Below are positions 2,618 through 61,923 of a stretch of 64,000 bases of DNA, in pieces. The notes under the pieces are model-generated. The model was given only the letters and a program-made list of their open reading frames with translations, did not search any database and had not been told where the DNA came from. The position numbers and the translations under genes are program-made. Numbering within the stretch: the first letter of the stretch is position 1; each line of letters opens with the position of its first letter. The stretch comes from Escherichia phage LQ5: the sequence record OR677401, one strand, 5' to 3'.

Positions 2618-2762
2618 GTAGCAAAACGTGGTGCCTTATTTGGATGGCCTGTATCCCAGTGATTTGCGTGTGTTTTAGTTTATTGTTGTGGAAATTGGCA
2701 TAAATCAGTATACATCTCCATTAATCATGATATTATAGACCTATCAACTAATGGAGATGATT

Positions 2763-3106: not shown

Positions 3107-3451
3107 ATGTCTAAATTATTTTTTGGTAATCGCAACATTATGTTCTTTAAACAGATTAGCATGTCAGAAACATTTGATTTAAGTTATTCGGGCGACACAA
3201 AAGCTGTTAACCTTAAAAATTTAGCGTCTGCAGAATTTGCATTCTATCAGGACCCTGAAACTGGTTTCTACAAATTTATTAAGTTCCGCATGACTATGGA
3301 CCGCGATTATCGTGACGTTTATTATACAAGTTATGAAAGTGCTATCAATGCAATTCGCGAAGCTTATGGATTGGATTCGTTGTCTCTTGACCGCCTGTAT
3401 AATGCAAGCCTTTACACCAGCGGATTTATTTTAGAACAACTTCAAAAATAG
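3107..3451 (+). CDS. hypothetical protein
   Basis: Track ORF 3083..3451; ATG at 3107 preceded by AAGGAAAATATT. Confidence 0.4.
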   Translation: MSKLFFGNRNIMFFKQISMSETFDLSYSGDTKAVNLKNLASAEFAFYQDPETGFYKFIKFRMTMDRDYRDVYYTSYESAINAIREAYGLDSLSLDRLYNASLYTSGFILEQLQK

Positions 3452-3528
3452 TTTACAACCTCGAGAATCATGTTATAATGGTTCTCGTTGACTGGATAAC
3501 AAAACATTAATCTACTGAGGAAATTGAT

Positions 3529-5693: not shown

Positions 5694-5793
5694 GCCTTGG
5701 AGTCGAGTTCTTGTTACTCTGTATCTTTGCTGTTATTCTGGGCCTGGCGACAGGCTTAGCTATAGGTTTAATAGCAGCTCACTTTAAAAAGTA
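5690..5793 (+). CDS. putative 34-aa hydrophobic peptide
   Basis: ATG overlapping gp52 stop; MSLGVEFLLLCIFAVILGLATGLAIGLIAAHFKK; followed by terminator; exact ends +/-1 nt. Confidence 0.3.
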
Positions 5794-5816
5794 AGGAACC
5801 TTCGGGTTCCTTTTTT
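5794..5816 (+). terminator. rho-independent terminator (GGAACC-UUCG-GGUUCC + U7)
   Basis: perfect 6-bp GC-rich stem, UUCG tetraloop, T-run. Confidence 0.7.
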
Positions 5817-5862: not shown

Positions 5863-5900
5863 AGACCTATCAAAACAATAGAGTGAAATGGAGATACAAA

Positions 5901-6536
5901 ATGTCTAAAATTACTTATATCATCAAAGCTTCTGAAGGCGCCCTGAATGAAAAAACCGCTTCAATCTTAGTACATATCATCAAGCATAACTTCATCACTT
6001 CAGGCGAAGTCCGTGAAGCCCTGAGTGAGCAATTTAGTGCTGTGGTAGTTAACTCTAATATCGGTGTATTGATTAAGAAAGGATTCATCGAAAAATCTGG
6101 TGATGGACTAGTGGCTACAGGTGAAGCAATGGACCTAGTTCAAAAAGCTGCCGACCTGTTCGCTTCTGAAAATGCTCCAGAGATGTTGGAAAAACGTAAA
6201 ACGCGTAGTTCACGTGGTGTTACTCCTGAAATGGTAACACTGGCTGATGAAGTTAAAGCTTTATTAGAAGACCGTATCGAGATTCGTGAAATTGCTGAAA
6301 ACCGTAGCAACCTTGAAGTTCGATTCGCTAAACGTACCAACGGTATTCGTCAAATCGAAGTCCGTCGTGATGGAATGATGCGTATCTTCGGTTATAATAT
6401 GACTGATAAAGAAAAACAGGTGTTTACTTCCTTGAATCTTGATGTTAAGATTAAGACTGGTGGTAAGAATACTTATATCGACTTCCAAAACGTATCATCT
6501 GAAGTTATCAAAACCGTAACCAACGCAATTATCTGA
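5901..6536 (+). CDS. motA: MotA middle-transcription activator
   Basis: MSKITYIIKAS...LNEKTA.IL...NSNIGVLIKKG..EKSGDGL..TGEA matches T4 MotA N-terminal domain; track ORF 5883 uses an upstream non-ATG start. Confidence 0.88.
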   Translation: MSKITYIIKASEGALNEKTASILVHIIKHNFITSGEVREALSEQFSAVVVNSNIGVLIKKGFIEKSGDGLVATGEAMDLVQKAADLFASENAPEMLEKRKTRSSRGVTPEMVTLADEVKALLEDRIEIREIAENRSNLEVRFAKRTNGIRQIEVRRDGMMRIFGYNMTDKEKQVFTSLNLDVKIKTGGKNTYIDFQNVSSEVIKTVTNAII

Positions 6537-15168: not shown

Positions 15169-18100
15169 TTATTCAATCCACTCAAACTTAACGGATTTAG
15201 TGACCGGGTCAGGAATAATACGAACGTTACCAATACGTAACCAATCAAGGATTGTAATGTTACCCATTGTAGCGTTATCAGCAGGCAATGCACCAACCTC
15301 TTCAGCAGAAGGAGGGTTATCTGCCGTATAGACCATAGAGAACGTAGTCCATGCGTTTTTATTTTTCTGCCAGGTACGTGTATAACGAATAGTACCACCA
15401 TTCAGTCCTGTAGGATAGCACACCCAATCCTGATAACATGAATCCAATGTATTACCAAACTGAGTTAACGTACCAGGATATTTAACTTCCTTATCACGAA
15501 CAGAATAATCAAACCAAGTACCACGTAATTTCTGACCTGATGTACCGAGAACCTCGTCACCAAAACTACCGTCTTCGTTACGATAACGAATAGCCGGAGA
15601 ACTAAATGCACCCGTTTCTGTCAACCAACCAGAAGCATTCCATATCTCATCAGAAACACCGGCAGGTTTAGTTTGGACCGTATCAATATTAACCTGACGT
15701 TTAGTTTTCATCGTCCAATAACCTGGGAACAGGTTAAATGTGGCCGAATCATTGATATCAACAGACCAGAAGCCAACTGTTTCTGCAGTAGGGGCCTGGG
15801 ATGCTAATGTAGGTTTAACACCAACAGAACGGACGTATTTTTGAGCAACCAAACCATTATTTGCCGATACCTGTCCGGTGGAAACGATAGTACCTGAAGT
15901 AGTTACGTTTTGCAACGAAGACAGAGCAGAAGCATTTAGTGTGGTTGTAGAAACACCGTTAGAAGTGGTTATACCTGTGATATTAGCATTCTTAGAAATA
16001 CTAATGGAACCACTATTAACAGCAAAGTCACCAGTCGTATTAAAGGTCCAGTAGAAAGATTCTAAAGAACCCGGCGATGGAAGATAATGTATTTTAAAAT
16101 CACGAGTTCCGTCGTTTACAGTGCCTAAAGAGAATGTACCTTGCCCTAAACGTTGTTTAACAATAGGATGGAACTTGGCATCCGGGGTCGAATTTATCTC
16201 GGCAAAAATCGGAGCTAAAGTATCACCTTGAGAGTTCCAAGTACCTGCACCAGATTGGGGTCCTACAAATTTAATAGATTTACCTGAGCTAACAGATACA
16301 TCATTTTTAAAAGTAGAATTTCCGGTTACTTCTAGAGAACCTAAAATAGTGTTGCCGGTAATATTAGCCGTACTAGAAGACACCAGAGGAGCGGCCAGGT
16401 TCAATTGTTTTGTCAACGTTAAAGAACCATTAACCGTTTGGTCAACGTCTCTACGAATGAACTGGAGTGAATCTAGGCCATCCAATTTCTCGGAGTTCAC
16501 AGCCGTAGCATTTATAGGTAAAAAGTTCTGTAAAGTTTTATTCATCTCGTAAGATGAAACCGCATAACCCGTTTTAGGATAGTTCGCTGCGTTCAGAACA
16601 GTATCATCGTTCTCATAAAGGCCTGTACCTGAGTTAAATTTAACACCAGAACCAGTAACTTTATTTCCTGAATGGGTTAAAGCACCTTCGGTTAATTTAA
16701 CAAATCCACGGCGAAGTGCAGTAGCTTCCCAAGTAGTTTCGGTCTGTACTACATATTTTAAACCAGAAGGGCTTACAGCCAAAACTTTAGAAGTTCCTGC
16801 GGTTGTTTCGGTATTGGTTGCAACACGAATAATACCTTCAGAACTTTCAGTAGATTTTTTAGAGTGTAATTTCAAAGGAGTGATGATGGTTTTGTCATCA
16901 GTACCAACGTTGACTTCGGTCTGGGTTGCCAGGCGAGCAGTACCACGTTGTGTCTCATTTGCTTCTCTAATATCTAGTGTATAATGGTTCCATAAGGTTC
17001 CTGATTCAACCAAACCACTGGCTGCTGAGACAGAAGTTCTAGCAGTATCATTAAATCTTGTTTTAATTTTCAACGGAGTTGAAATAACATTATCTAACGT
17101 ACCTGCATCAAATTCTACCTGTGTTGCAATTCTAGCAATACCAGTCAATCCTTCCGTAGCTTTCCTATCATTTAACGTCTTAGGCGTTACCGCACGAGTA
17201 TAATCTGTTCCAGTATCAGTTTCCTGTTGCGTAGCAATTTCAATTAACCCTGTACGAGTATCAAGAGCCACACGAGCATGTAATGTTTCCGGAGAAACAG
17301 CACTGTTGGCAAATCCACTTGCCGATTGGCCTGCGTTAACTTCAGATTGGTTAGAAAGATATACCGTACCCTGTTGAACTTGGGTAGCTTTATACTGGTC
17401 AAGAGCTTTAGGAGAAATAACCAAATTGCCTACGTTCTTATTATAAACGTTAGTACCTACAGTGTCTCTAGCAGTCGCAGGAGTGGTTCCTACAGTAGAG
17501 GTATATGTTACAATACCTGAAAGACTTTCCGAACCCTGGCGTGCTTGTAGCTTCTTAGGAGTGATGATTGTAGTATCATCTGTACCCGTGTTAGTTTCAA
17601 CTTGCGTAGCAATTTCAGCAACACCACGGCGAGTTTCGGTTGCAGTACGTTCGTTTAATTTCTTAGGAGAAATAATCAAATCGTCCTGGAATGCGAAGGT
17701 TGTGTCCTGGTTCACCTGAGCAGTAGTAGCAATACGAGCAATACCACGACGAGATTCAGTCGCCACACGATTAGCTAAAGTCTGCGGAGTAATTGCCAGT
17801 TCTTTTTCAGGATTATTTTCATGGTCAACGTTTGCTTGAGTCTGGGACGCAAGGGCAATAACACCTAAACGAGCACGAGTTAAATCATCTTTAGAATCCA
17901 CACGTTCTATAGTAGGAACGTTCTGGGCAACAACCCAATATTTGCCACCTGTAGCGGTGTCTTCGATATAACTCAGTTCAATAACCGGAGTATAACTTAT
18001 ATTGCCATTAAAGGTCAGTACGTCATTCAATACCCATTCGGTTTCTGGTGGATATTCTGAACGTTTAGGGAATTGAAGCAACTGGACGGATGAAGCAATC

Positions 18101-22165: not shown

Positions 22166-22782
22166 ATATAGTTTATTGGCTAGAATTTAGTCAACGTATC
22201 AAAGCCAAAACACCTCCCTATTATTATATCGGGTCTAAGCATGATTGCTTAATTAAAAATGGTGTTATAATTGATTCACGTAACAAAGAATATTGGTCTT
22301 CGTGTAAACAACCACGATTTATCTCTGCTTTGTCTGAGCGTCCTAAAGTTAAAGTTCTTCATGTATGCGAAGATGTTTTAACTGAAGAAGAATTTTACCA
22401 TAATCATTATGATGTGGTTAAATCACCCTTATTCTTTAATAAGGCAATGGCTAAAGGGACTTTCAAATCCTGTTTGAAAGGTAAATCCAAATCTGAAAGC
22501 CATAAACAAAAGATGAAAGAAAGTTCTCATCTTAAAGGTAAAGAGCCATGGGAACATCCTAATGCTATAGCAAAAGGTACCCATTTAGTGTGGAAAAATG
22601 CTAAAGTCTTTTATGACTGGTATATAGGCCCACATGAAACTACTAGATTAGGTCCGAAGATAATGTCTCGTGAAACCGGTTTAGCCTGTTCTATAATGAC
22701 AGGACATTCAATGATAAATAAATTTAAATCAGGATGGAATCCTCATCTCGATATTAAATTTAATGAATTTGCTTCAAACTGA
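22153..22782 (+). CDS. putative Seg-like homing endonuclease (degenerate GIY-YIG, NUMOD-like motif)
   Basis: N-terminus IVYWLEF...YYYIGS; basic GKSKSESHKQKMKESSHLKGK segment; sits in the 59-32 interval where T4 carries segG. Confidence 0.45.
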   Translation: MSILNIVYWLEFSQRIKAKTPPYYYIGSKHDCLIKNGVIIDSRNKEYWSSCKQPRFISALSERPKVKVLHVCEDVLTEEEFYHNHYDVVKSPLFFNKAMAKGTFKSCLKGKSKSESHKQKMKESSHLKGKEPWEHPNAIAKGTHLVWKNAKVFYDWYIGPHETTRLGPKIMSRETGLACSIMTGHSMINKFKSGWNPHLDIKFNEFASN

Positions 22783-22886
22783 GGGTGATATAATTACCCT
22801 CTGGAACAAACCTAGTTATCAAGGTAAATGTGGTAACACCAACTGTTAATAATTAATTAATTAATTAAATAAATAAGGTAAATAAT
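22783..22886 (+). promoter_or_regulatory. gene 32 5' leader: AU-rich (UUAA/UAAU)n tract with upstream GGG...CCC hairpin, candidate gp32 autogenous translational operator
   Basis: gggtgatataattaccc hairpin followed by ttaataattaattaattaattaaataaataagg before the gp32 ATG. Confidence 0.5.
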
Positions 22887-23792: not shown

Positions 23793-23808
23793 GTTATTGA
23801 TTTATAAT

Positions 23809-23833
23809 GGGAAGACTTCGGTCTTCCCTTTTT
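23809..23833 (+). terminator. rho-independent terminator after gene 32
   Basis: GGGAAGAC-UUCG-GUCUUCCC + U5. Confidence 0.75.
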
Positions 23834-23873: not shown

Positions 23874-23902
23874 AGACCTATCAACTACATGAGGAAATAA
23901 AA

Positions 23903-24582: not shown

Positions 24583-24614
24583 AGACCTATCAACTAATGA
24601 GTGAGGAAAATAAA

Positions 24615-24842
24615 ATGGCTAAGGTTAATATTGATATCGTTGATTTTGAATACACTTACGAAGTTATCCGTAATCGTTATCCTTCTTTGAGTATGACTTA
24701 CATTAAAGATACCCAATTCTTTAGTATTCAAATTGAAGTCCAAGGTCCTCTTGAAGACCTTACCCGCTTTATGCAAAATGAATATTGTGACGGTATGCAT
24801 GCTGAAGACGCTAAATTTTATATGGGCTTGATTCAAGCTTAG
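24615..24842 (+). CDS. hypothetical small protein
   Basis: Track ORF 24597..24842; ATG (MAKVNIDIV...) after GAGGAAAATAAA. Confidence 0.45.
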
Positions 24843-24901
24843 TATACAAACCAACGGGAACATGATAATATGTTCCCTCAACAAAAAATGAGGAAATTAA
24901 A

Positions 24902-25279
24902 ATGATGGAAACTGGTAAATTTTACGTATTGGACCCTGCTGCTAAAAAACAATTCGTCGCTGGTAGTCCTGATGATAATTATAATTCATGCATGGTCAAG
25001 TTGATGGAACAACACGGCAATTCCTTCAAAGTTCTGGATATGTGTTATATTGAAGGCAATTATTTTGTTGAAAAAGTTGAAATGAAAGATGGCACCATCC
25101 TGAATAGTATGGGTGGCGCTGATGAGTACTTTGAACTCGCTGAATGGGAATTCTGTCACTTCCTGGAAGTTGATGGCGATGCTCCTGATGTTGATACCCA
25201 AACCATTCATGTGCAAGTCAATCACAAAAATGCCGCTGAAGTCATTGCACTGATTAAAGCGACTTTTGATATTCGGTAA
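24902..25279 (+). CDS. hypothetical protein (paralogue of 23903..24289)
   Basis: 125 aa; see paralogue. Confidence 0.5.
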   Translation: MMETGKFYVLDPAAKKQFVAGSPDDNYNSCMVKLMEQHGNSFKVLDMCYIEGNYFVEKVEMKDGTILNSMGGADEYFELAEWEFCHFLEVDGDAPDVDTQTIHVQVNHKNAAEVIALIKATFDIR

Positions 25280-25285
25280 AAAGTA

Positions 25286-25315
25286 GTGTACAGCCAAATG
25301 GGGCTATGATATAAT
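25286..25315 (+). promoter_or_regulatory. early-type promoter with inverted repeat (TGGGGC/GCCCCA) bracketing the -10 TATAAT
   Basis: gtgtac -35-like, 18-nt spacer, TGATATAAT. Confidence 0.5.
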
Positions 25316-25355
25316 GGCCCCATACTGAGATAACAACTAAACACCGGAGAATAAA

Positions 25356-32209: not shown

Positions 32210-32237
32210 TTTACATCTCCTCATGATGTGTTAGTAT
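32209..32237 (+). promoter_or_regulatory. T4-type early promoter (cassette variant)
   Basis: gtttac, 17-nt spacer, tagtat -10. Confidence 0.55.
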
Positions 32238-32266
32238 AGACTTACCAACTAATGAGGAGAAAACAA

Positions 32267-33395: not shown

Positions 33396-33499
33396 TTGAG
33401 ACATGTGTTTGCGGTTGGGATGCCGTTAGATTTGGCGCTGCATTCTTTTGCTTTGGTATCGTGTTCAGCATGTGTATGCATGGTCTTTTCGGAAAGTAG
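33392..33499 (+). CDS. possible 35-aa hydrophobic peptide
   Basis: ATG overlapping the o-spanin stop; MIETCVCGWDAVRFGAAFFCFGIVFSMCMHGLFGK. Confidence 0.25.
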   Translation: MIETCVCGWDAVRFGAAFFCFGIVFSMCMHGLFGK

Positions 33500-33528
33500 T
33501 TTACAAACTCTTGGGAGCAGAGTATAAT
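33499..33528 (+). promoter_or_regulatory. early promoter with inverted repeat (GGAGCA/TGCTCC) bracketing -10 TATAAT
   Basis: gtttac, 18-nt spacer, tataat. Confidence 0.55.
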
Positions 33529-33562
33529 GCTCCTACGGATTATAAAAATTGAGGAAATTATT

Positions 33563-35458: not shown

Positions 35459-35520
35459 GTGTTTACTTTCACCAAGGACGGTGATATGATGACCTTACCG
35501 AAACAAATGAGGAAATCGAA

Positions 35521-39252: not shown

Positions 39253-39257
39253 GTTAT

Positions 39258-39282
39258 GGGACTCTTCGGAGTCCCATTTTTG
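39258..39282 (+). terminator. rho-independent terminator
   Basis: GGGACUC-UUCG-GAGUCCC + AUUUUUG. Confidence 0.75.
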
Positions 39283-39303: not shown

Positions 39304-39332
39304 GTGTACATCTCCGGTAGGCATGATACTAT
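39304..39332 (+). promoter_or_regulatory. early promoter (GTGTAC -35 variant, TGATACTAT -10)
   Basis: 17-nt spacer; followed by shared leader ...accaaataatac.aaaacaaactggagaataaaatg. Confidence 0.5.
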
Positions 39333-39373
39333 AGACATGTACCAAATAATACTAAAACAAACTGGAGAATAAA

Positions 39374-39709: not shown

Positions 39710-39738
39710 TTTTACTTTGGTACAGGTTGTGTTATTAT
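39710..39738 (+). promoter_or_regulatory. early promoter with inverted repeat (GGTACAGG/CCTGTACC) bracketing -10 TATTAT
   Basis: ttttac -35-like, TGTTATTAT extended -10; leader duplicated from 39333-39373. Confidence 0.5.
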
Positions 39739-39779
39739 AGACCTGTACCAAATAATACGAAAACAAACTGGAGAATAAA

Positions 39780-44016: not shown

Positions 44017-45912
44017 ATGTCCGAACAATTGAATGAGGTATTTGACGGCGCTATAGATTTATCAGCTGTCAATTTAAACCCTAAACTTAAAGTACCACAG
44101 ATTTGGAATATAAAGGCTGAAGGTAATGAGAACCTTGTTGCACGCATGGTTTCATATACTTCTGAAGGTGATACAATCCGCCAAGTTAAACCGGGTGACA
44201 AATACGTTCATATTATTTTAATGAGCCTATCATCTAAAGGGGCCCCGGCAGAACTCAAAGGTGGTTTAGGTAGTAACCCCATTTCCGCTATTCGTTCTAT
44301 ATTTGATACGGTTTATGAACAAGTTAAAAAGCTCCGTATGGATGCCGTTATGTTCCGTTTTCCTACTAAGAAAATGAAAGGTCAGGAAAAAGCTGTACAA
44401 CGAGTTCTAGCCAAATTAATAGCTACTAGAGCAGGTGGGCAATTCAAGGTCCTTGATGCCTTGTATCAATATACAGGCAAACATTCATATGTTTTTATCT
44501 ATCGTAAAAATAAAAATATAGAATCAATAAACGGTATTCCTAATATTAATCCGGAATTGTATACTAAAGTCGAATCTGAAGTCGGTGATGTGTATGTTTC
44601 AAAGAAAACAGGCGAAGATGTTACCAAATTAGAAGCTATAGCTAAGTCTATAGACGAAATAGAAAAATCACGTTCTGATAAAATGGTTATAACCAAGACT
44701 AAGGTTTCTAAACGGGCCGCTATAAATGCGTTATATTCTACCGCCGAGCCTACAGGATTGAGTAAATTTTCGGCAGAGCACAAAAAAGCTTATGCAGATT
44801 ATTCTGCTACTAGTTCCGTTCATTCTTCTGAAGATTCTAAAGAAAGCCAAATAGCTTTAGCCAGTAATAAAATATTAAAAGACACCTCTAAAGAAATGGC
44901 AGAATATTTGGATTATATTTTTAACGGTGTTAATCCATCATTTGAAGTAGACGAGCGCAAACTTAAACTAATTGCTGATATAAAGTTTGCTTTAGAGGCA
45001 TCAGATTCTTTAGATAAATCTAATAGTGTCATAGAGGCTTTAAAATCAGGTAAATCTCATGTAGACATTCTTAGACTAGTCGCTGCGGCCCTTTTAGATG
45101 ATTCAGTTAAAGGTACTTGGGCTAGAGAATCTAAAATCAAGGAAGTAATAAAATCCTTAGTAGCAGTTTATACAAAATCTATCCAACCGTTGTTTAAGAT
45201 ATCTGATAATCCTAATTTATCCAAACCTCAAGAAGAGGCAGTCAAAAAGTATACTCGTGGCGGCTACAACCATATAAACAACTTTTTGCTAGGTAAAACA
45301 GATACCACCGATGAAATGATAAAAATGATTGGTGAGTTGGATTCTACATTTGAAAATGGTACAAAACTTCCTAAAGGAACCATAGTGTATCGTTCTCAGA
45401 TAATGCCTACCGAAATGGCTTTGAATTCTATAAAACATAAGGTGATGTATCTTCCTATTTTTGCATCAACTTCATTGGCTCCTAATATTTTCGGTGAAAT
45501 GGGTCATGCTCAATCCAACTTAGACCCTGAAGCTCTTTCTAGCGATATAGATAGTAATCTTGAAGACACCATTAAAAGTGCGACCGGAAGTGCTAGAGAT
45601 ACCATTAAGCTAGGGTTAATTATTAAAGGTGCTGATAAAATTAAGGTTATTGTGCCCGGTGACTTGGCTAATTGGTCTACAGAAACCGAAGTAATTCTTC
45701 CTCGTGGGGTTATGCTTAAGATTAATAAAGTATACGGTGCTTCCAAGGGACCTATGGGTTCAATTGGTAAATATGTTTTAGTGGAATGTGAAGTTGTAGC
45801 TACCGAGCAAATCACAGAGGAAAATTCATATAGCACCGGATTCTCGTTTGGAAATTATGATAGAATTATGTATGAAGATTCTATGGAAAAATTAGCAAAT
45901 TTATTTAAATAG
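44017..45912 (+). CDS. Alt-like ADP-ribosyltransferase paralogue 1
   Basis: 631 aa; N-terminal ~230 aa conserved with the two downstream ORFs and T4 Alt; C-terminal mART signature Y-R-S-Q ... F-A-S-T-S ... E-V-I-L-P-R-G. Confidence 0.8.
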   Translation: MSEQLNEVFDGAIDLSAVNLNPKLKVPQIWNIKAEGNENLVARMVSYTSEGDTIRQVKPGDKYVHIILMSLSSKGAPAELKGGLGSNPISAIRSIFDTVYEQVKKLRMDAVMFRFPTKKMKGQEKAVQRVLAKLIATRAGGQFKVLDALYQYTGKHSYVFIYRKNKNIESINGIPNINPELYTKVESEVGDVYVSKKTGEDVTKLEAIAKSIDEIEKSRSDKMVITKTKVSKRAAINALYSTAEPTGLSKFSAEHKKAYADYSATSSVHSSEDSKESQIALASNKILKDTSKEMAEYLDYIFNGVNPSFEVDERKLKLIADIKFALEASDSLDKSNSVIEALKSGKSHVDILRLVAAALLDDSVKGTWARESKIKEVIKSLVAVYTKSIQPLFKISDNPNLSKPQEEAVKKYTRGGYNHINNFLLGKTDTTDEMIKMIGELDSTFENGTKLPKGTIVYRSQIMPTEMALNSIKHKVMYLPIFASTSLAPNIFGEMGHAQSNLDPEALSSDIDSNLEDTIKSATGSARDTIKLGLIIKGADKIKVIVPGDLANWSTETEVILPRGVMLKINKVYGASKGPMGSIGKYVLVECEVVATEQITEENSYSTGFSFGNYDRIMYEDSMEKLANLFK

Positions 45913-45920
45913 GATAGATT

Positions 45921-48002
45921 ATGACCCAATTAAATGAAGTGTTCGAGTCCGAAGGTACACTGCCTGTTGTGAACTTGAACCCAAAACTTAAAGTACCTCA
46001 GATTTGGAAGATTGGAGACGCGGAGTCTCAGTTAGTAGCACGTATGGTATCCTATGCTTCTGAAGGCGATGCTATTAAACAGGTTAAGATGGGTGATAAA
46101 TATGCCCACGTTATCCTTATGAGCCTTTCAGCTAAAGGTTCGCCTGCCGAACTTAAAGGCGGCTTAGGCCCTACTCCTGTAGATGCGATTAATACTATTT
46201 TTGATGTAGTTTATGACCAAGTTAAAAAGCTTCGTATGGATGCCGTGATGTTCCGTTTCCCTACTAAGAAAATGAAAGGTCAAGGCCCTATCGTTCAACG
46301 TATTATCCAACGTTTGGTAGCACAGAAAACCGGTGGACGTTTTAAAGTGGTTCCGGCTATGTACCAATTTACCGGTAAACATACTTACATCCTGGTAGTC
46401 CGTAAACAAGCTGATATCGAAGATATCAAAGGTATGCCTGGAATTAATGCTGAATTGTATACTAAGGTAGATTCTGATGTCGGTGAAGTTTATATTTCCA
46501 AAAAAGAAGGTGTGCAGGTTACTAAAGAAACTGCTATTGCTGGCAGTATTGCTAAGGTTGAAGAACGTCGCACTGATAAAATGGTTATAACCAAGACTAA
46601 GATTTCTAGGCGCGCCATTGCAGCAAGCCAATCATTGGAATCTTATCGTAATGAAAGTGAATTGTTTAAGAAATATGAAGCTACTGCAGCGGATTTTAAT
46701 AAACCGGCAACAGTTCCATTAATCCCTGAGGCTCAGGAAATGGTTACTAATAACAATTCTCCTGCGGCTAAAAATAAGGTTGCTAATATAGTGGCTGAAG
46801 GCACTGCTGAAGAATTGCATTACGATTATAAAATGTTCCCACTTCACGGTATTGGCGAAATCCAAGAGAAAATTAAAGAGAAAATTCTTACAGCAATAAA
46901 AAACGAACCTTTGACATCTGTTAAAGCTCTAGAAAAATATGCCTCTGCTATTAATACCATTTTCGAAGAATATAAAGGCGAGTGGCTGGCTATCCATAAC
47001 AGAACTCGTAAAGGCCAACCTGATGACCTTTGGAACGAATTGACAGAGGCCAAGTGGAAAGCAGCCAAGACTAAGTTCATTAAAAAACGCGTGTATAGTT
47101 TTGCTGGTGTGGGTGGTGGTATTATGGTTGATATTACTATTGCTCGTGAAGGTTCTAAATATACTCCATCACAAAAGCGTGGTATCAGAGAATATTGTGG
47201 TTCAGGATATACAGACATAAATAATCTTCTTTTAGGACGTTATAATCCTCAGAACTATGAGGTTATGAGCGAAAAAGATATCGAATCCGCTGTAAATAAT
47301 TTAGATTTAGCTTTTGAAAATGGTGACCGTATACCGGAAGGCATTACAGTTTATCGTGCCCAGAGTATGACTGCTCCTATATACGAAGCACTAGTTAAAA
47401 ATAAAGTGTTTTATTTTAGAAATTTTGTATCTACTTCTTTAACTCCTATAATTTTCGGACGTTTTGGTGTTACGCACGCTGGTATTGGTCTTTTAGAACC
47501 TGAAGTTCGCAATGAATTGACAGTCGATAAAAATGAAGAAGGAATAACTATTAACCCTAATGAAATAAGAGCGTATAAAGAAAACCCTGATTACGTTAAA
47601 GTTCAAATAGGATGGGCTATTGATGGGGCTCATAAAGTTAATGTCGTATATCCAGGAAATCTCGGAATAGCAACTGAAGCCGAAGTTATTCTACCGCGTG
47701 GATTAATGGTCAAAGTTAATAAAATAACAGATTCTTCTAATAATGATGGAACAACATCTAGTAATACAAAACTCATCCAAGCTGAAGTTATGACAACAGA
47801 TGAGCTTCAAGAATCTGTGGTATATGATGGTGACGTACTAATGGAAACCGGCGAGTTGGTCGTATATCAAGATGACTTCGATACTTCCGAAAGCCCCTTA
47901 TCTTTTGATTCATTTGTTAAATCTACACGGTTTGATGTACTGCCTCTTTTGGCTTCATGCATAGACCTCTATGACATCCCAGAAAAATTCACCCAAGGGT
48001 AA
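45921..48002 (+). CDS. alt: Alt ADP-ribosyltransferase (closest to T4 Alt)
   Basis: 693 aa (T4 Alt 682 aa); blocks KVDSDVGEVYISKK.G.QVTK..AIA.SIA, SKYTP.QKRGIREY.GSGY.DINN.LLG.YNP, VFYFRNFVSTSL, EVILPRGLMVKVNKITD, AEVMTT.EL.ESV.YDGD.LMETGELV. Confidence 0.88.
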   Translation: MTQLNEVFESEGTLPVVNLNPKLKVPQIWKIGDAESQLVARMVSYASEGDAIKQVKMGDKYAHVILMSLSAKGSPAELKGGLGPTPVDAINTIFDVVYDQVKKLRMDAVMFRFPTKKMKGQGPIVQRIIQRLVAQKTGGRFKVVPAMYQFTGKHTYILVVRKQADIEDIKGMPGINAELYTKVDSDVGEVYISKKEGVQVTKETAIAGSIAKVEERRTDKMVITKTKISRRAIAASQSLESYRNESELFKKYEATAADFNKPATVPLIPEAQEMVTNNNSPAAKNKVANIVAEGTAEELHYDYKMFPLHGIGEIQEKIKEKILTAIKNEPLTSVKALEKYASAINTIFEEYKGEWLAIHNRTRKGQPDDLWNELTEAKWKAAKTKFIKKRVYSFAGVGGGIMVDITIAREGSKYTPSQKRGIREYCGSGYTDINNLLLGRYNPQNYEVMSEKDIESAVNNLDLAFENGDRIPEGITVYRAQSMTAPIYEALVKNKVFYFRNFVSTSLTPIIFGRFGVTHAGIGLLEPEVRNELTVDKNEEGITINPNEIRAYKENPDYVKVQIGWAIDGAHKVNVVYPGNLGIATEAEVILPRGLMVKVNKITDSSNNDGTTSSNTKLIQAEVMTTDELQESVVYDGDVLMETGELVVYQDDFDTSESPLSFDSFVKSTRFDVLPLLASCIDLYDIPEKFTQG

Positions 48003-48005
48003 ATA

Positions 48006-50129
48006 ATGGAAAATTTAAACGAAGTTTTTGATAGCGATTCCGCTAAAAACTATCCGGTAACAAATCTTAAACCTGGCTCAGGCGTACCGCAGATTTTTGC
48101 GGTACATGCTCCTGGTAATGACAATTTAGTAGCACGTATGGTATCTTATGCGTCTGAAGGCGATGCTATTAAAATGGTTAAGCCAGGCGATAAGTACGTC
48201 CATGTCATCCTAATGAGTTTATCTGCTAAAGGCGCCCCGGCAGAACTCAAGGGTGGTTTGGGTACCGATCCACTCGGTACACTGAACACCATTTTCGATA
48301 CCATATATGAACAAATAAACAAACTTAAAATGGACGCGGTTTTGTTCCGTTTCCCTACTAAGAAAATGAAAGGTAAAGGTCCTACCGTTCAGCGCGTATT
48401 AGCTCGCTTGGCTATGGCTCGTACCGGTGGTAAGTTTAAAGTTGTTGACGACATGTTCCAATTCAGCGGAAAACATACCTACGCTCTTTTAGTACGTCGT
48501 GGTGCTAATATTGAAGATATCAAGGGTATGCCTGAAATTAATGCCGATCTTTATACTAAAGTTGAGTCTAAAGTTGGCGAAGTTTATGTTTCTAAGAAAA
48601 CCGGCCAGGCCGTAAGTAAGGTCGAAGCCGTAGCGGCATCTATTGCACAAGTTGAAGAGAAACGTACTGATAAGGCTGTCATTACTCGTACTAAGATTTC
48701 GCGTCGTATGGCAGCGGCGGCGCAGTATTCTACTGCTGAGCCTGAAACTTTGTCCCCTAAAGAATTGCAGGTTTATAACGAGTTTGAAGCTTCTGTACCG
48801 GTTCACACGGCTGAAGGCCCTGAGAACGAAGGTATTGAACAGATTAGTCAGAACTTTAAAAAAGGTGCCATTACTAAAATGCGTCAGGCTTCTCAGTTTA
48901 AATCTAAGAGCGAGGACCTTGCCAACTTTAGATACACTATTGCTCTCACACACGCTTTAATGACTGATAGTAAATTTAAACTAAATTATGCTAATAGAGA
49001 TAAACAAGGGTTTGAAATTTACTCTAATAATATGGCATTTTTTAATACAGAAGTCGATAGACTTTTAAGTGGCCTTTCGCAAATCAATACAACCAATAGT
49101 CTGGATATTATTAAGAAAATTGTTAATAACCTGAGTACCCGTTTTAAGGGTTCCCCTTCAGAGAAAGCATCTAGAATTGCTTTCGCTATGGAAGCCGTTT
49201 ATAAACTGGTTAACGATTCTATTAGTGATGCATATGCTTATTCAGGCGAGCTCATTAAACCTAAGGACCTAACCAAAGATGAAAGCAATGCTATTATTGA
49301 ATATTGCGCGGCTGAATATGCTCCTATGAACTTATTCCTTTTAGGTAAACCTGAATCCGAAAACAATACAACGGCTATTAAATTGATTAAGGATTTAGAC
49401 TCAGCATTTACTAAGGGTATTAAACTTCCTAAGGGTACTATTTTGTATCGTGGTCAGGATTTGCCATACAAAATTCTGCGCCATAATATCGATAACAAAA
49501 CATTTTACTTTAAGAACTTTGTGTCAGCCTCATTAAAGCCTAACATCTTTGGTGAATTCGGTAAAAATTATATGGCCCTCGACAACCAAGCCGTTTTTGT
49601 TGGTGGTGAAGGTTCTTTGTCCTCCGCTGATGAGTTGTTTAAATTGGCTAGTGGTAGTTCATCTGATGTGGGTGAAGTCGATGACGAAGAGGTAGAATGG
49701 GAAGAAGACGAGTTTGGTAATCCAATTGCACCTGAAGGTCCTGCAGATAGAATTGCTGAAATTGGTATGGTTATTCGAGGTGCTGAAGCAGTTAAAGTTA
49801 TCGCTCCTGGTGACCTTACAGAATATGCCGAAGAAGCAGAAATTATCCTTCCGCGTGGATTATTGTTGAAGGTTGATAAAGTAGCGGCTTTTGCCATGAA
49901 TGATAGAGTATCTCACAAATACCTTATGGAAGCTACCGTAACACCTCCTTCAGAGCTCAGCGAATCTGTTTACGATGGTGACCATTTGATGGAAACTGGT
50001 GAAGTTCGCCTGATGGATGGATTTAGTCAATTCTTGGTTAATGAATCCGTTTCTGAAAGCAACGAAGCTATGGAAATCCTTGCCGCGTCTTTGGATATCT
50101 CTTCTTTATCAAATAAATTCAAAATGTAG
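48006..50129 (+). CDS. Alt-like ADP-ribosyltransferase paralogue 3
   Basis: 707 aa; same N-terminal module and R/S-x-S/E mART signature (ILYRGQ, FVSASL, EIILPRGLLLKV); distinct acidic insert (DDEEVEWEEDEFG). Confidence 0.8.
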   Translation: MENLNEVFDSDSAKNYPVTNLKPGSGVPQIFAVHAPGNDNLVARMVSYASEGDAIKMVKPGDKYVHVILMSLSAKGAPAELKGGLGTDPLGTLNTIFDTIYEQINKLKMDAVLFRFPTKKMKGKGPTVQRVLARLAMARTGGKFKVVDDMFQFSGKHTYALLVRRGANIEDIKGMPEINADLYTKVESKVGEVYVSKKTGQAVSKVEAVAASIAQVEEKRTDKAVITRTKISRRMAAAAQYSTAEPETLSPKELQVYNEFEASVPVHTAEGPENEGIEQISQNFKKGAITKMRQASQFKSKSEDLANFRYTIALTHALMTDSKFKLNYANRDKQGFEIYSNNMAFFNTEVDRLLSGLSQINTTNSLDIIKKIVNNLSTRFKGSPSEKASRIAFAMEAVYKLVNDSISDAYAYSGELIKPKDLTKDESNAIIEYCAAEYAPMNLFLLGKPESENNTTAIKLIKDLDSAFTKGIKLPKGTILYRGQDLPYKILRHNIDNKTFYFKNFVSASLKPNIFGEFGKNYMALDNQAVFVGGEGSLSSADELFKLASGSSSDVGEVDDEEVEWEEDEFGNPIAPEGPADRIAEIGMVIRGAEAVKVIAPGDLTEYAEEAEIILPRGLLLKVDKVAAFAMNDRVSHKYLMEATVTPPSELSESVYDGDHLMETGEVRLMDGFSQFLVNESVSESNEAMEILAASLDISSLSNKFKM

Positions 50130-50158
50130 TTTACAACACCACAAGGATGTGGTACTAT
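50129..50158 (+). promoter_or_regulatory. T4-type early promoter
   Basis: gtttac overlapping the alt-3 stop, 18-nt spacer, GGTACTAT. Confidence 0.5.
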
Positions 50159-61901: not shown

Positions 61902-61923
61902 ATGGGCCGCAAGGCCCATTTTG
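61902..61923 (+). terminator. rho-independent terminator after hoc
   Basis: AUGGGCC-GCAA-GGCCCAU + UUUG. Confidence 0.6.

Follow-up and report, generated by a model that had tools for sequence, protein, structure and literature searches.

Hairpins that overlap several early promoters of Escherichia phage LQ5 are real and under selection, but what they represent is one lineage's version of an element already published, the promoter-early stem-loop (PeSL) cassette. In the window, by which we mean the whole 64,000-nt stretch of sequence record OR677401 analysed here, the sites are probably PeSL-type composite cassettes in which a sense-strand hairpin most likely serves as an insulator in read-through RNA. 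What is new here is limited to the covariation statistics, the sense-strand (G·U) bias, and the consistent lack of U-tracts.

The window comes from a JS98/Bp7-type T4-like coliphage (Dhakavirus), a 6-kb sample being 93-97% identical to the Dhakavirus coliphages PSD9, Bp7, WG01, and IME08, and its genes were named through synteny with annotated relatives. The early promoter family was defined by pattern and profile: TTTAC-N15-19-TANNAT has 20 matches against 7.9 expected, and the profile search returned 18 early promoter copies on the + strand, which have the -35, the -10, and the spacer of about 17 nt of the sigma-70-type early promoter in a PeSL cassette. The five promoters discussed in an earlier sequence-only reading all lie on the + strand within co-directional early-gene arrays, upstream of ndd (3452), frd.1 (25287), a small ORF before pseT (33500), 30.7 (39711), and alt.-3 (50130), and the 25 nt upstream of them have an A+T content of 0.60-0.84. 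Upstream ORFs end at 3451, 24842, 25279, 33499, 39706, and 50129, adjoining the -35 hexamers or at most 7 nt away; for instance, a TAG stop codon stands directly 5' of the -35 at 3449-3457 (the TAG itself at 3449-3451, before the ndd promoter), 24840-24848, 33497-33505, and 50127-50135. The Shine-Dalgarno (SD) sequence and ATG of the next gene follow 40-60 nt past the -10, and the gap of about 75 nt between two co-directional genes holds the promoter, which is the intergenic layout of a PeSL (stop codon, cassette, SD, and start codon).

The sequence-only reading had proposed that, at five promoters, the -10 element sits in the loop between short inverted repeats. All five repeats are present, the arms being CGAGAA (3462-3467) and TTCTCG (3482-3487), TGGGGC (25299-25304) and GCCCCA (25317-25322), GGAGCA (33514-33519) and TGCTCC (33528-33533), GGTACAGG (39719-39726) and CCTGTACC (39742-39749), and the alt.-3 pair, and three of the stems are longer than had been noted, at 10, 10, and 12 bp (Table 1). 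The placement holds for four sites, where the repeats bracket or abut the -10 at 3474-3479, 25310-25315, 33523-28, and 39733-38, and fails for alt.-3, the weakest of the five, whose stem lies in the spacer between -35 and -10 and touches only the first base of the -10. Several further promoters with stems had gone unremarked, among them the 30.8 promoter, which has a canonical terminator just upstream (39256-39277). The inner 3-4 bp of the stems (CAT/ATG) derive from the promoter consensus ATGnTATAATGG, and the outer arms are variable, often with a G-rich 5' arm and a C-rich 3' arm (TGGGGC/GCCCCA, GGGAGC/GCTCC, GGGAAC/GTTCCC, GAGGGT/ACCCTC); such arms, together with G·T pairs, are also a PeSL trait.

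Table 1. Promoters of the window and the stems associated with them; folding energies and z-scores are for RNA.
Feature	Position	Strand	Elements	Energy (kcal/mol)	z
ndd early promoter	3452..3487	+	-35 TTTACA 3452-3457; -10 TATAAT 3474-3479		
ndd hairpin	3462-3471 / 3478-3487	+	10 bp, one U·G; loop GUUAUA	-13.3	-4.4
frd.1 early promoter	25287..25323	+	-35 TGTACA 25287-25292; -10 TATAAT 25310-25315		
frd.1 hairpin	25298-25307 / 25314-25323	+	10 bp, one U·G	-17.3	-4.6
Early promoter, small ORF before pseT	33500..33539	+	-35 TTTACA 33500-33505; -10 TATAAT 33523-33528		
33500 promoter hairpin	core 33512-33519 / 33528-33535	+	core plus 3 outer pairs	-13.5	-3.2
30.7 early promoter	39710..39752	+	-35 TTTTAC/TTTACT 39710-39716; -10 TATTAT 39733-39738		
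30.7 hairpin	39716-39727 / 39741-39752	+	12 bp, perfect	-18.8	-4.6
alt.-3 early promoter	50130..50158	+	-35 50130-50135; -10 TACTAT 50153-50158		
alt.-3 spacer hairpin	50138-50143 / 50148-50153	+	ACCACA / TGTGGT; loop AGGA	-6.9	-1.8
Early promoter (absent from earlier reading)	24843..24877	+	-35 TATACA 24843-24848; -10 TAATAT 24866-24871		
24843 promoter hairpin	24856-24864 / 24869-24877	+		-11.9	-4.5
30.8 early promoter (absent from earlier reading)	39305..39342	+	-35 TGTACA 39305-39310; -10 TACTAT 39327-39332		
30.8 repeat	39306-39311 / 39337-39342	+	GTACAT / ATGTAC; entire promoter enclosed		
MotA-type middle promoter upstream of gene 32 (absent from earlier reading)	22770..22801	+	TGCTT 22770-22774; TATAAT 22789-22794		
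Gene 32 middle promoter stem	22781-22789 / 22793-22801	+	9 bp	-12.0	-5.1
Early promoter (absent from earlier reading)	2709..2759	+	-35 2709-2714; -10 2731-2736; 11-bp repeat 2713-2723 / 2749-2759	-16.1	-4.0
alc early promoter (absent from earlier reading)	32210..32260	+	-35 32210-32215; -10 32232-32237; 9-bp repeat 32216-32224 / 32252-32260	-16.4	-3.7

Some recurring sequences were seen alongside these stems. A spacer motif, C(A/G)CCA-(A/T)GGA(T/C)-GGTG, recurs at 2014-2029, 35469-35484, and 50138-50153 and forms stems of 5-6 bp between -35 and -10, and in Bp7 the alt.-3 promoter has CGCCA/TGGTG with a 1-nt shift. Many early promoters carry a conserved box, TATAGACCTATCAAC(TA), 3' of the -10 (2737-2752, 5863-5878, 23874-23889, and 24583-24598). 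In NC-G, VR7, IME341, and Bp7, a spacer sequence, GGTCTATGG/AGGCTATGG, pairs with this box, which places the -10 itself within the 3' arm, and the window copies of these promoters have the spacer TTTAAACATGA instead, with weak pairing to the -35 (ATGTTTA/TAAACAT).

When the RNA of each region was folded, as the sequence-only reading had proposed, and compared with 200 dinucleotide shuffles per site, the z-scores were -4.4, -4.6, -3.2, and -4.6 at the four true sites, where 0-1 of the 200 shuffles fold as well, and -1.8 at alt.-3. Across the family, each promoter was scored over 45 nt that begin at the -35 hexamer. Seven of the 18 reach a minimum free energy (MFE) of -10 kcal/mol or lower, where genome windows would predict 1.7 (binomial p = 8e-4), and shuffles with both hexamers held fixed gave p <= 0.012 for six of these seven. 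Shuffles and genome-window excess thus bear out the view that the repeats are a non-random structural feature of early promoters that lies outside the textbook sigma-70 promoter. The distribution is bimodal, 11 of the 18 promoters having no strong stem within the scored 45 nt, so a promoter can function without the hairpin, and not every gene junction needs one.

Comparison with relatives adds to these figures. In six relatives the orthologous promoters are for the most part identical, and pairing survives where the sequences differ. For example, the arms of the ndd promoter are identical in five relatives, and in VR7 the CGAGAA/TTCTCG of the window gives way to GGGGTCA/TGACCCC at that position; the P35462 ortholog in Bp7, NC-G, and VR5 has GGTAGGACT/AGTCCTACC around the -10 with pairing kept; and in the gene 32 middle promoter of VR5, TGAAGTA/TACTTCA replaces GAGGGT/ACCCTC. 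IME341 and NC-G have single or double changes that yield G·U or U·G pairs, as in the frd.1 hairpin of IME341, where a change in the 3' arm turns G-C into G·U, and the GGTACAGG/CCTGTACC arms of the 30.7 promoter are also found in VR7 and T4. For the family of the 33500 promoter, viral contigs were scanned with CAAACTCTTG-N6-GAGTATAAT, in which promoter parts are fixed and the 5' arm and everything downstream are free, and the contigs together with the relatives gave 15 distinct aligned stem variants. In this set, 99.2% of the stem cells are paired, four of the eight pairs have changed on both sides, and one pair takes the forms C-G, G-C, U-A, U·G, and G·U. None of 500 shuffles does as well, and pairing is only 36-52% in slid registers. 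A scan of viral contigs with two 14-nt -10 cores (TCATGTTATAATGG and CTATGATATAATGG) listed mostly unrelated promoters, which makes its matches unusable for covariation, and they serve instead as a negative control: among the matches listed, pairing flanks occur in 2 of 151 cores from unrelated viral contigs. Stem pairing is therefore selected.

These results bear on the possibility that the hairpins arise by chance or as a by-product of the promoter consensus, which we regard as very unlikely. The consensus ATGnTATAATGG does supply the inner CAT/ATG pairs, the stem at 50138-50153 is not significant by itself (13 of 200 shuffles fold equally well), and a stem at 6435-6452 is broken in VR5. The excess over both genome windows and hexamer-fixed shuffles, the covariation of stem pairs, and the occurrence of the same cores in unrelated contigs without pairing flanks all speak against such an origin. 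Chance is thus contradicted for the four main sites and stands for the weakest sites only. The stem at 6435-6440/6447-6452, which lies within the motA coding sequence and folds at -10.5, is not a confident member of the class, the pair broken in VR5 having no compensation.

The same data indicate which molecule folds. The window and six relatives together supplied 68 unique promoters, from which we selected symmetrically for the strand comparison (an MFE of -10 or lower on whichever strand, sense or antisense, folds better). Among the 30 unique hairpin promoters obtained, the sense fold is more stable in 24 and the antisense fold in 6 (Wilcoxon p = 2e-4), with 43 G·U pairs in the sense and 26 in the antisense strand, whereas the genome-window baseline is symmetric (148 sense, 133 antisense). 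The promoters compared are inter-related, so these p-values overstate their independence; a grouping by eye yields about 15 families, of which roughly 11-12 have the more stable fold on the sense strand. In the covariation set, for its part, G·U/U·G occurs in 15 cells and A·C in none. Wobble pairs without their A·C counterparts, combined with the strand bias, place the constraint on the sense strand, which argues for RNA and against a cruciform, and leaves room for a hairpin in sense-strand ssDNA.

Control at the DNA level, with the inverted repeat extruded as a cruciform or with a hairpin in melted DNA modulating the opening of the embedded promoter, was one of two mechanisms advanced in the sequence-only reading, and it now appears quite improbable. 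The repeats do overlap the -10 and the discriminator, where melting takes place, and the proposed folding of each region as ssDNA gave loops of 6-13 nt and energies between -5 and -11 kcal/mol, better than shuffles (z of -2.4 to -4.9); moreover, at 39716-39752, where the 12-bp repeat is perfect, the two strands fold equally well. However, a cruciform requires pairing in both strands, while each G·U (G·T) pair that the stems accept is an A·C mismatch on the other strand, and sense folds beat antisense ones. Equivalent hairpins on both strands, the true DNA palindrome of cruciform promoters, occur at 39716-39752 alone. At most sites ssDNA reaches only -5 to -8 kcal/mol, and such low stability together with loops of 6-13 nt is unfavourable for cruciform extrusion; in addition, the open complex is single-stranded only from about -11 to +2, as against the whole 25-37 nt of the repeats. 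The virion RNA polymerase of phage N4 recognises a promoter in the form of a DNA hairpin; the sites in the window share with it a promoter with an inverted repeat and differ in being ordinary sigma-70 promoters with a sense-strand constraint.

A hairpin in sense-strand ssDNA could instead act in recombination or replication, for instance as a preferred crossover or cleavage point for cassette shuffling, and have no role as RNA. This is unlikely, although an indel and promoter swaps are bounded by promoter-hairpin motifs and ssDNA tolerates G·T pairs. Such a role would account for conserved sequence blocks but not for compensatory wobble pairing on the coding strand at fixed orthologous sites, and it sits poorly with the position of all hairpins on the transcribed sense strand directly past stop codons and with the low stability of the ssDNA. 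The dyad might also be an operator through which a dimeric DNA-binding protein represses the early promoters. Repressor operators typically have a dyad over the -10, and early transcription is turned off after a few minutes; nevertheless, the arms differ at every promoter (CGAGAA, TGGGGC, GGAGCA, GGTACAGG, GGGAAC) and show covariation instead of conservation, they yield no common half-site, loop length ranges from 4 to 13 nt, and the DNA dyad is broken at G·T positions, all of which makes an operator extremely unlikely.

If the hairpin forms in RNA, the transcript that carries it can be deduced from the start site. In standard sigma-70 geometry, +1 lies about 7 nt past the -10, and with this prediction every 5' arm falls upstream of the start and the 3' arms stop near +1. 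The transcript of the promoter itself thus cannot form the hairpin, which leaves scarcely any likelihood for the second mechanism of the sequence-only reading, a hairpin at the 5' end (5' leader) of that transcript: part of the 3' arm at 39741-39752 is downstream of the predicted +1, but all of the 5' arms, and most or all of each 3' arm, precede it, and, with the stop codon of the previous gene adjoining the -35, there is no alternative -10/-35 pair upstream of the arms. Neither of the two mechanisms is therefore supported. Each upstream gene runs in the same direction and has its stop codon against the -35, so that read-through RNA would fold the hairpin about 10 nt past the stop codon, and it is most likely only in this RNA that the hairpins form, given the upstream position of the 5' arms and the lack of U-tracts.

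None of the -10-overlapping hairpins has a T-run, and none was listed on the + strand by a terminator pattern scan, the sequences 3' of them being TTGACTGG, ACTGAGAT, ACGGATTA, TCAACAAA, and TAATACGA. They share with intrinsic terminators a GC-rich hairpin directly past a stop codon but differ in having no U-tract and in having loops of 6-13 nt, larger than the tetraloops of the genome's own terminators, and without a T-run they are not canonical intrinsic terminators. Four other early promoters do have a canonical one directly before them (5793-5812, 23808-23829, 39256-39277, and 61902-61919), with a UUCG or GCAA tetraloop and then a T-run (to 5816, 23833, 39282, and 61922 with the T-run included). 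Three of the four promoters that follow them have no overlapping stem; seen the other way, and with the caution that small numbers demand, an upstream canonical terminator is present at one of seven promoters with an overlapping hairpin and at 3 of 11 others. As the genome uses canonical T-run terminators elsewhere, the U-less hairpins may do something other than terminate. REP elements are U-less intercistronic hairpins that lie between co-transcribed genes, block 3' exonucleases, and are not fused to promoters; the hairpins in the window resemble such stabilisers in being U-less and intercistronic and differ in their fusion to a promoter, and a part in RNA decay is putative here. In T4, delayed-early RNAs are believed to require shielding from nucleases (PMC2988021).

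Two of the promoters that had gone unremarked follow another known logic. In the T4 genes e, soc, 49, and I-TevI, hairpins that sequester the ribosome-binding site (RBS) contain an internal promoter (Uzan and Miller 2010, PMC3014915), so that only RNA initiated upstream forms the sequestering structure. The repeats at 2713-2759 and 32216-32260 fit this scheme exactly, the promoter start lying between the arms and the 3' arm on the SD, which at alc is AUGAGGAGA, although the T4 genes use late promoters and these two are early. The arms at 2713-2759 are identical in five relatives, and in VR5 the alc repeat keeps its pairing with a different loop. At 2709-2763 and 32210-32264, read-through RNA would hide the ribosome-binding site and promoter-initiated RNA would not. 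The five sites discussed above are unlike these hairpins, as their 3' arms reach no further than about +1 and leave the SD, which lies 25-45 nt further on, untouched.

The closest match for the other sites is the PeSL cassette that Arbiol et al. (2010, PMC2839356) described in coliphages RB49 and phi1. Located between genes, it runs from an AT-rich upstream stretch through an early promoter of sigma-70 type and a stem-loop to the SD/ATG of the gene that follows; the stems most often lie between -35 and -10 or are "overlapping the -10 box" and often have polyG/polyC arms, G-rich 5' and C-rich 3', with G-T pairs noted; and many copies are present per genome, flanking indels of small ORFs (PMC2839356). 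The same authors mentioned PeSL-like sequences in JS98 in passing (PMC2839356). The window shares this anatomy from the AT-rich upstream region to the SD/ATG and differs in belonging to a Dhakavirus rather than a Krischvirus, in its -35 of TTTACA/TGTACA rather than TTGACA, and in having no U-tract after its stems. A stable stem-loop in or next to the promoter defines a PeSL, with five positional subclasses that include -10 overlap, and in the window 7 of the 18 early promoters have a stem-loop that overlaps them. Comeau et al. (2014, PMC4122927) found PeSLs in T4 and PST, with the consensus TTTACW-N17-TAYWAT and stems placed just upstream of the promoter, and extended the class to nt-1 and KVP40, including middle-promoter versions (PmSLs). 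The promoters of the window have the same consensus, the four canonical terminators listed above correspond to the class with the stem-loop just upstream, and the middle promoter at 22770-22801 resembles the PmSL of Vibrio phage nt-1. Several stems in the window and in T4 itself, however, overlap the -10 rather than lying upstream: in T4, the -10-overlapping class is found at three of the seven promoters detected in the syntenic 42 kb, one of them the 30.7 promoter. At the T4 (L278) early promoters at 16496, 29314, and 32723, the stems fold at -16 to -18 kcal/mol, the loop contains or adjoins the -10, and the sense fold is more stable than the antisense one each time. A degenerate promoter copy at 2296-2351, in which the spacer, the -10, and the downstream box are kept and there is no -35 hexamer, is like the 'half PeSLs' of Comeau 2014.

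Variation between close relatives is also bounded by cassettes, as expected of PeSLs, which flank indels or replacements of small ORFs. The segment at 24837-25345 (the 24843 promoter, a 125-aa ORF that is a paralogue of frd.2 with 74-85% nucleotide identity, and a second promoter) is found, among six relatives, only in IME341, with breakpoints at the cassettes, and the other five relatives have its flanks joined directly. Promoters or spacers have been swapped at ndd (VR7), P24555, and P35462. Thus, judged by its sequence, the window has every defining feature of a PeSL, cassette-bounded variation included. The scan with Rfam gathering thresholds matched no family in the whole window. Upstream of the alt.-3 promoter, at 44017-50129, are three tandem ORFs for Alt-like ADP-ribosyltransferases (631, 693, and 707 aa), of which AnYang also has three, Bp7 and NC-G two, and VR7 one.

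The explanation that we favour combines these elements. In an economical layout, a strong T4-type sigma-70 early promoter in the intergenic gap is overlaid by a sense-strand hairpin whose arms use the least sequence-constrained parts of the promoter, the spacer and the discriminator/start region, and the -10 hexamer, in or beside the loop, is largely spared pairing constraints. The hairpin would exist only in read-through RNA from the upstream gene, where it most likely insulates transcription units as a (partial) attenuator of read-through, as a barrier to 3' exonucleases that would define a stable 3' end of the upstream message, or as both; the embedded promoter would then restart transcription for the next gene. 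The cassettes, as repeated conserved blocks of about 60-100 nt, probably also act as recombination linkers for swapping small genes. We infer the insulating role from the folding in read-through RNA and from the absence of a T-run in a genome that has canonical terminators elsewhere. PeSLs have been proposed to be terminators or attenuators, and one RB49 stem-loop cut downstream lacZ expression as much as rrnB T1 (PMC2839356), which is the experimental support for the putative termination or attenuation of upstream transcription by the stem-loops in the window. Crossovers have likewise been mapped within the loop of PeSLs, and those between cassettes gave mini-circles (PMC2839356).

Covariation, strand bias, and the lack of U-tracts suggest that the label of 'terminator' is open to question for the -10-overlapping subclass. 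It is conceivable, though doubtful, that the U-less hairpins with the -10 in the loop form a functionally distinct class and are not mere space-saving terminators, for instance pause-type or factor-dependent elements at which read-through RNA would be stopped or processed, exactly at the next start site. If so, the end of one unit would be coupled to the next initiation, through hand-over of the polymerase or protection from promoter occlusion. As for the insulating PeSL-type cassettes that we consider probable, their assignment to a published class explains an odd-looking feature of T4-type early promoters. This class is thought to insulate dense early genes and to supply linkers for the shuffling of small accessory genes, and for phage engineering, elements of about 40 nt may offer compact promoter-plus-insulator parts, insofar as the insulation we infer applies.
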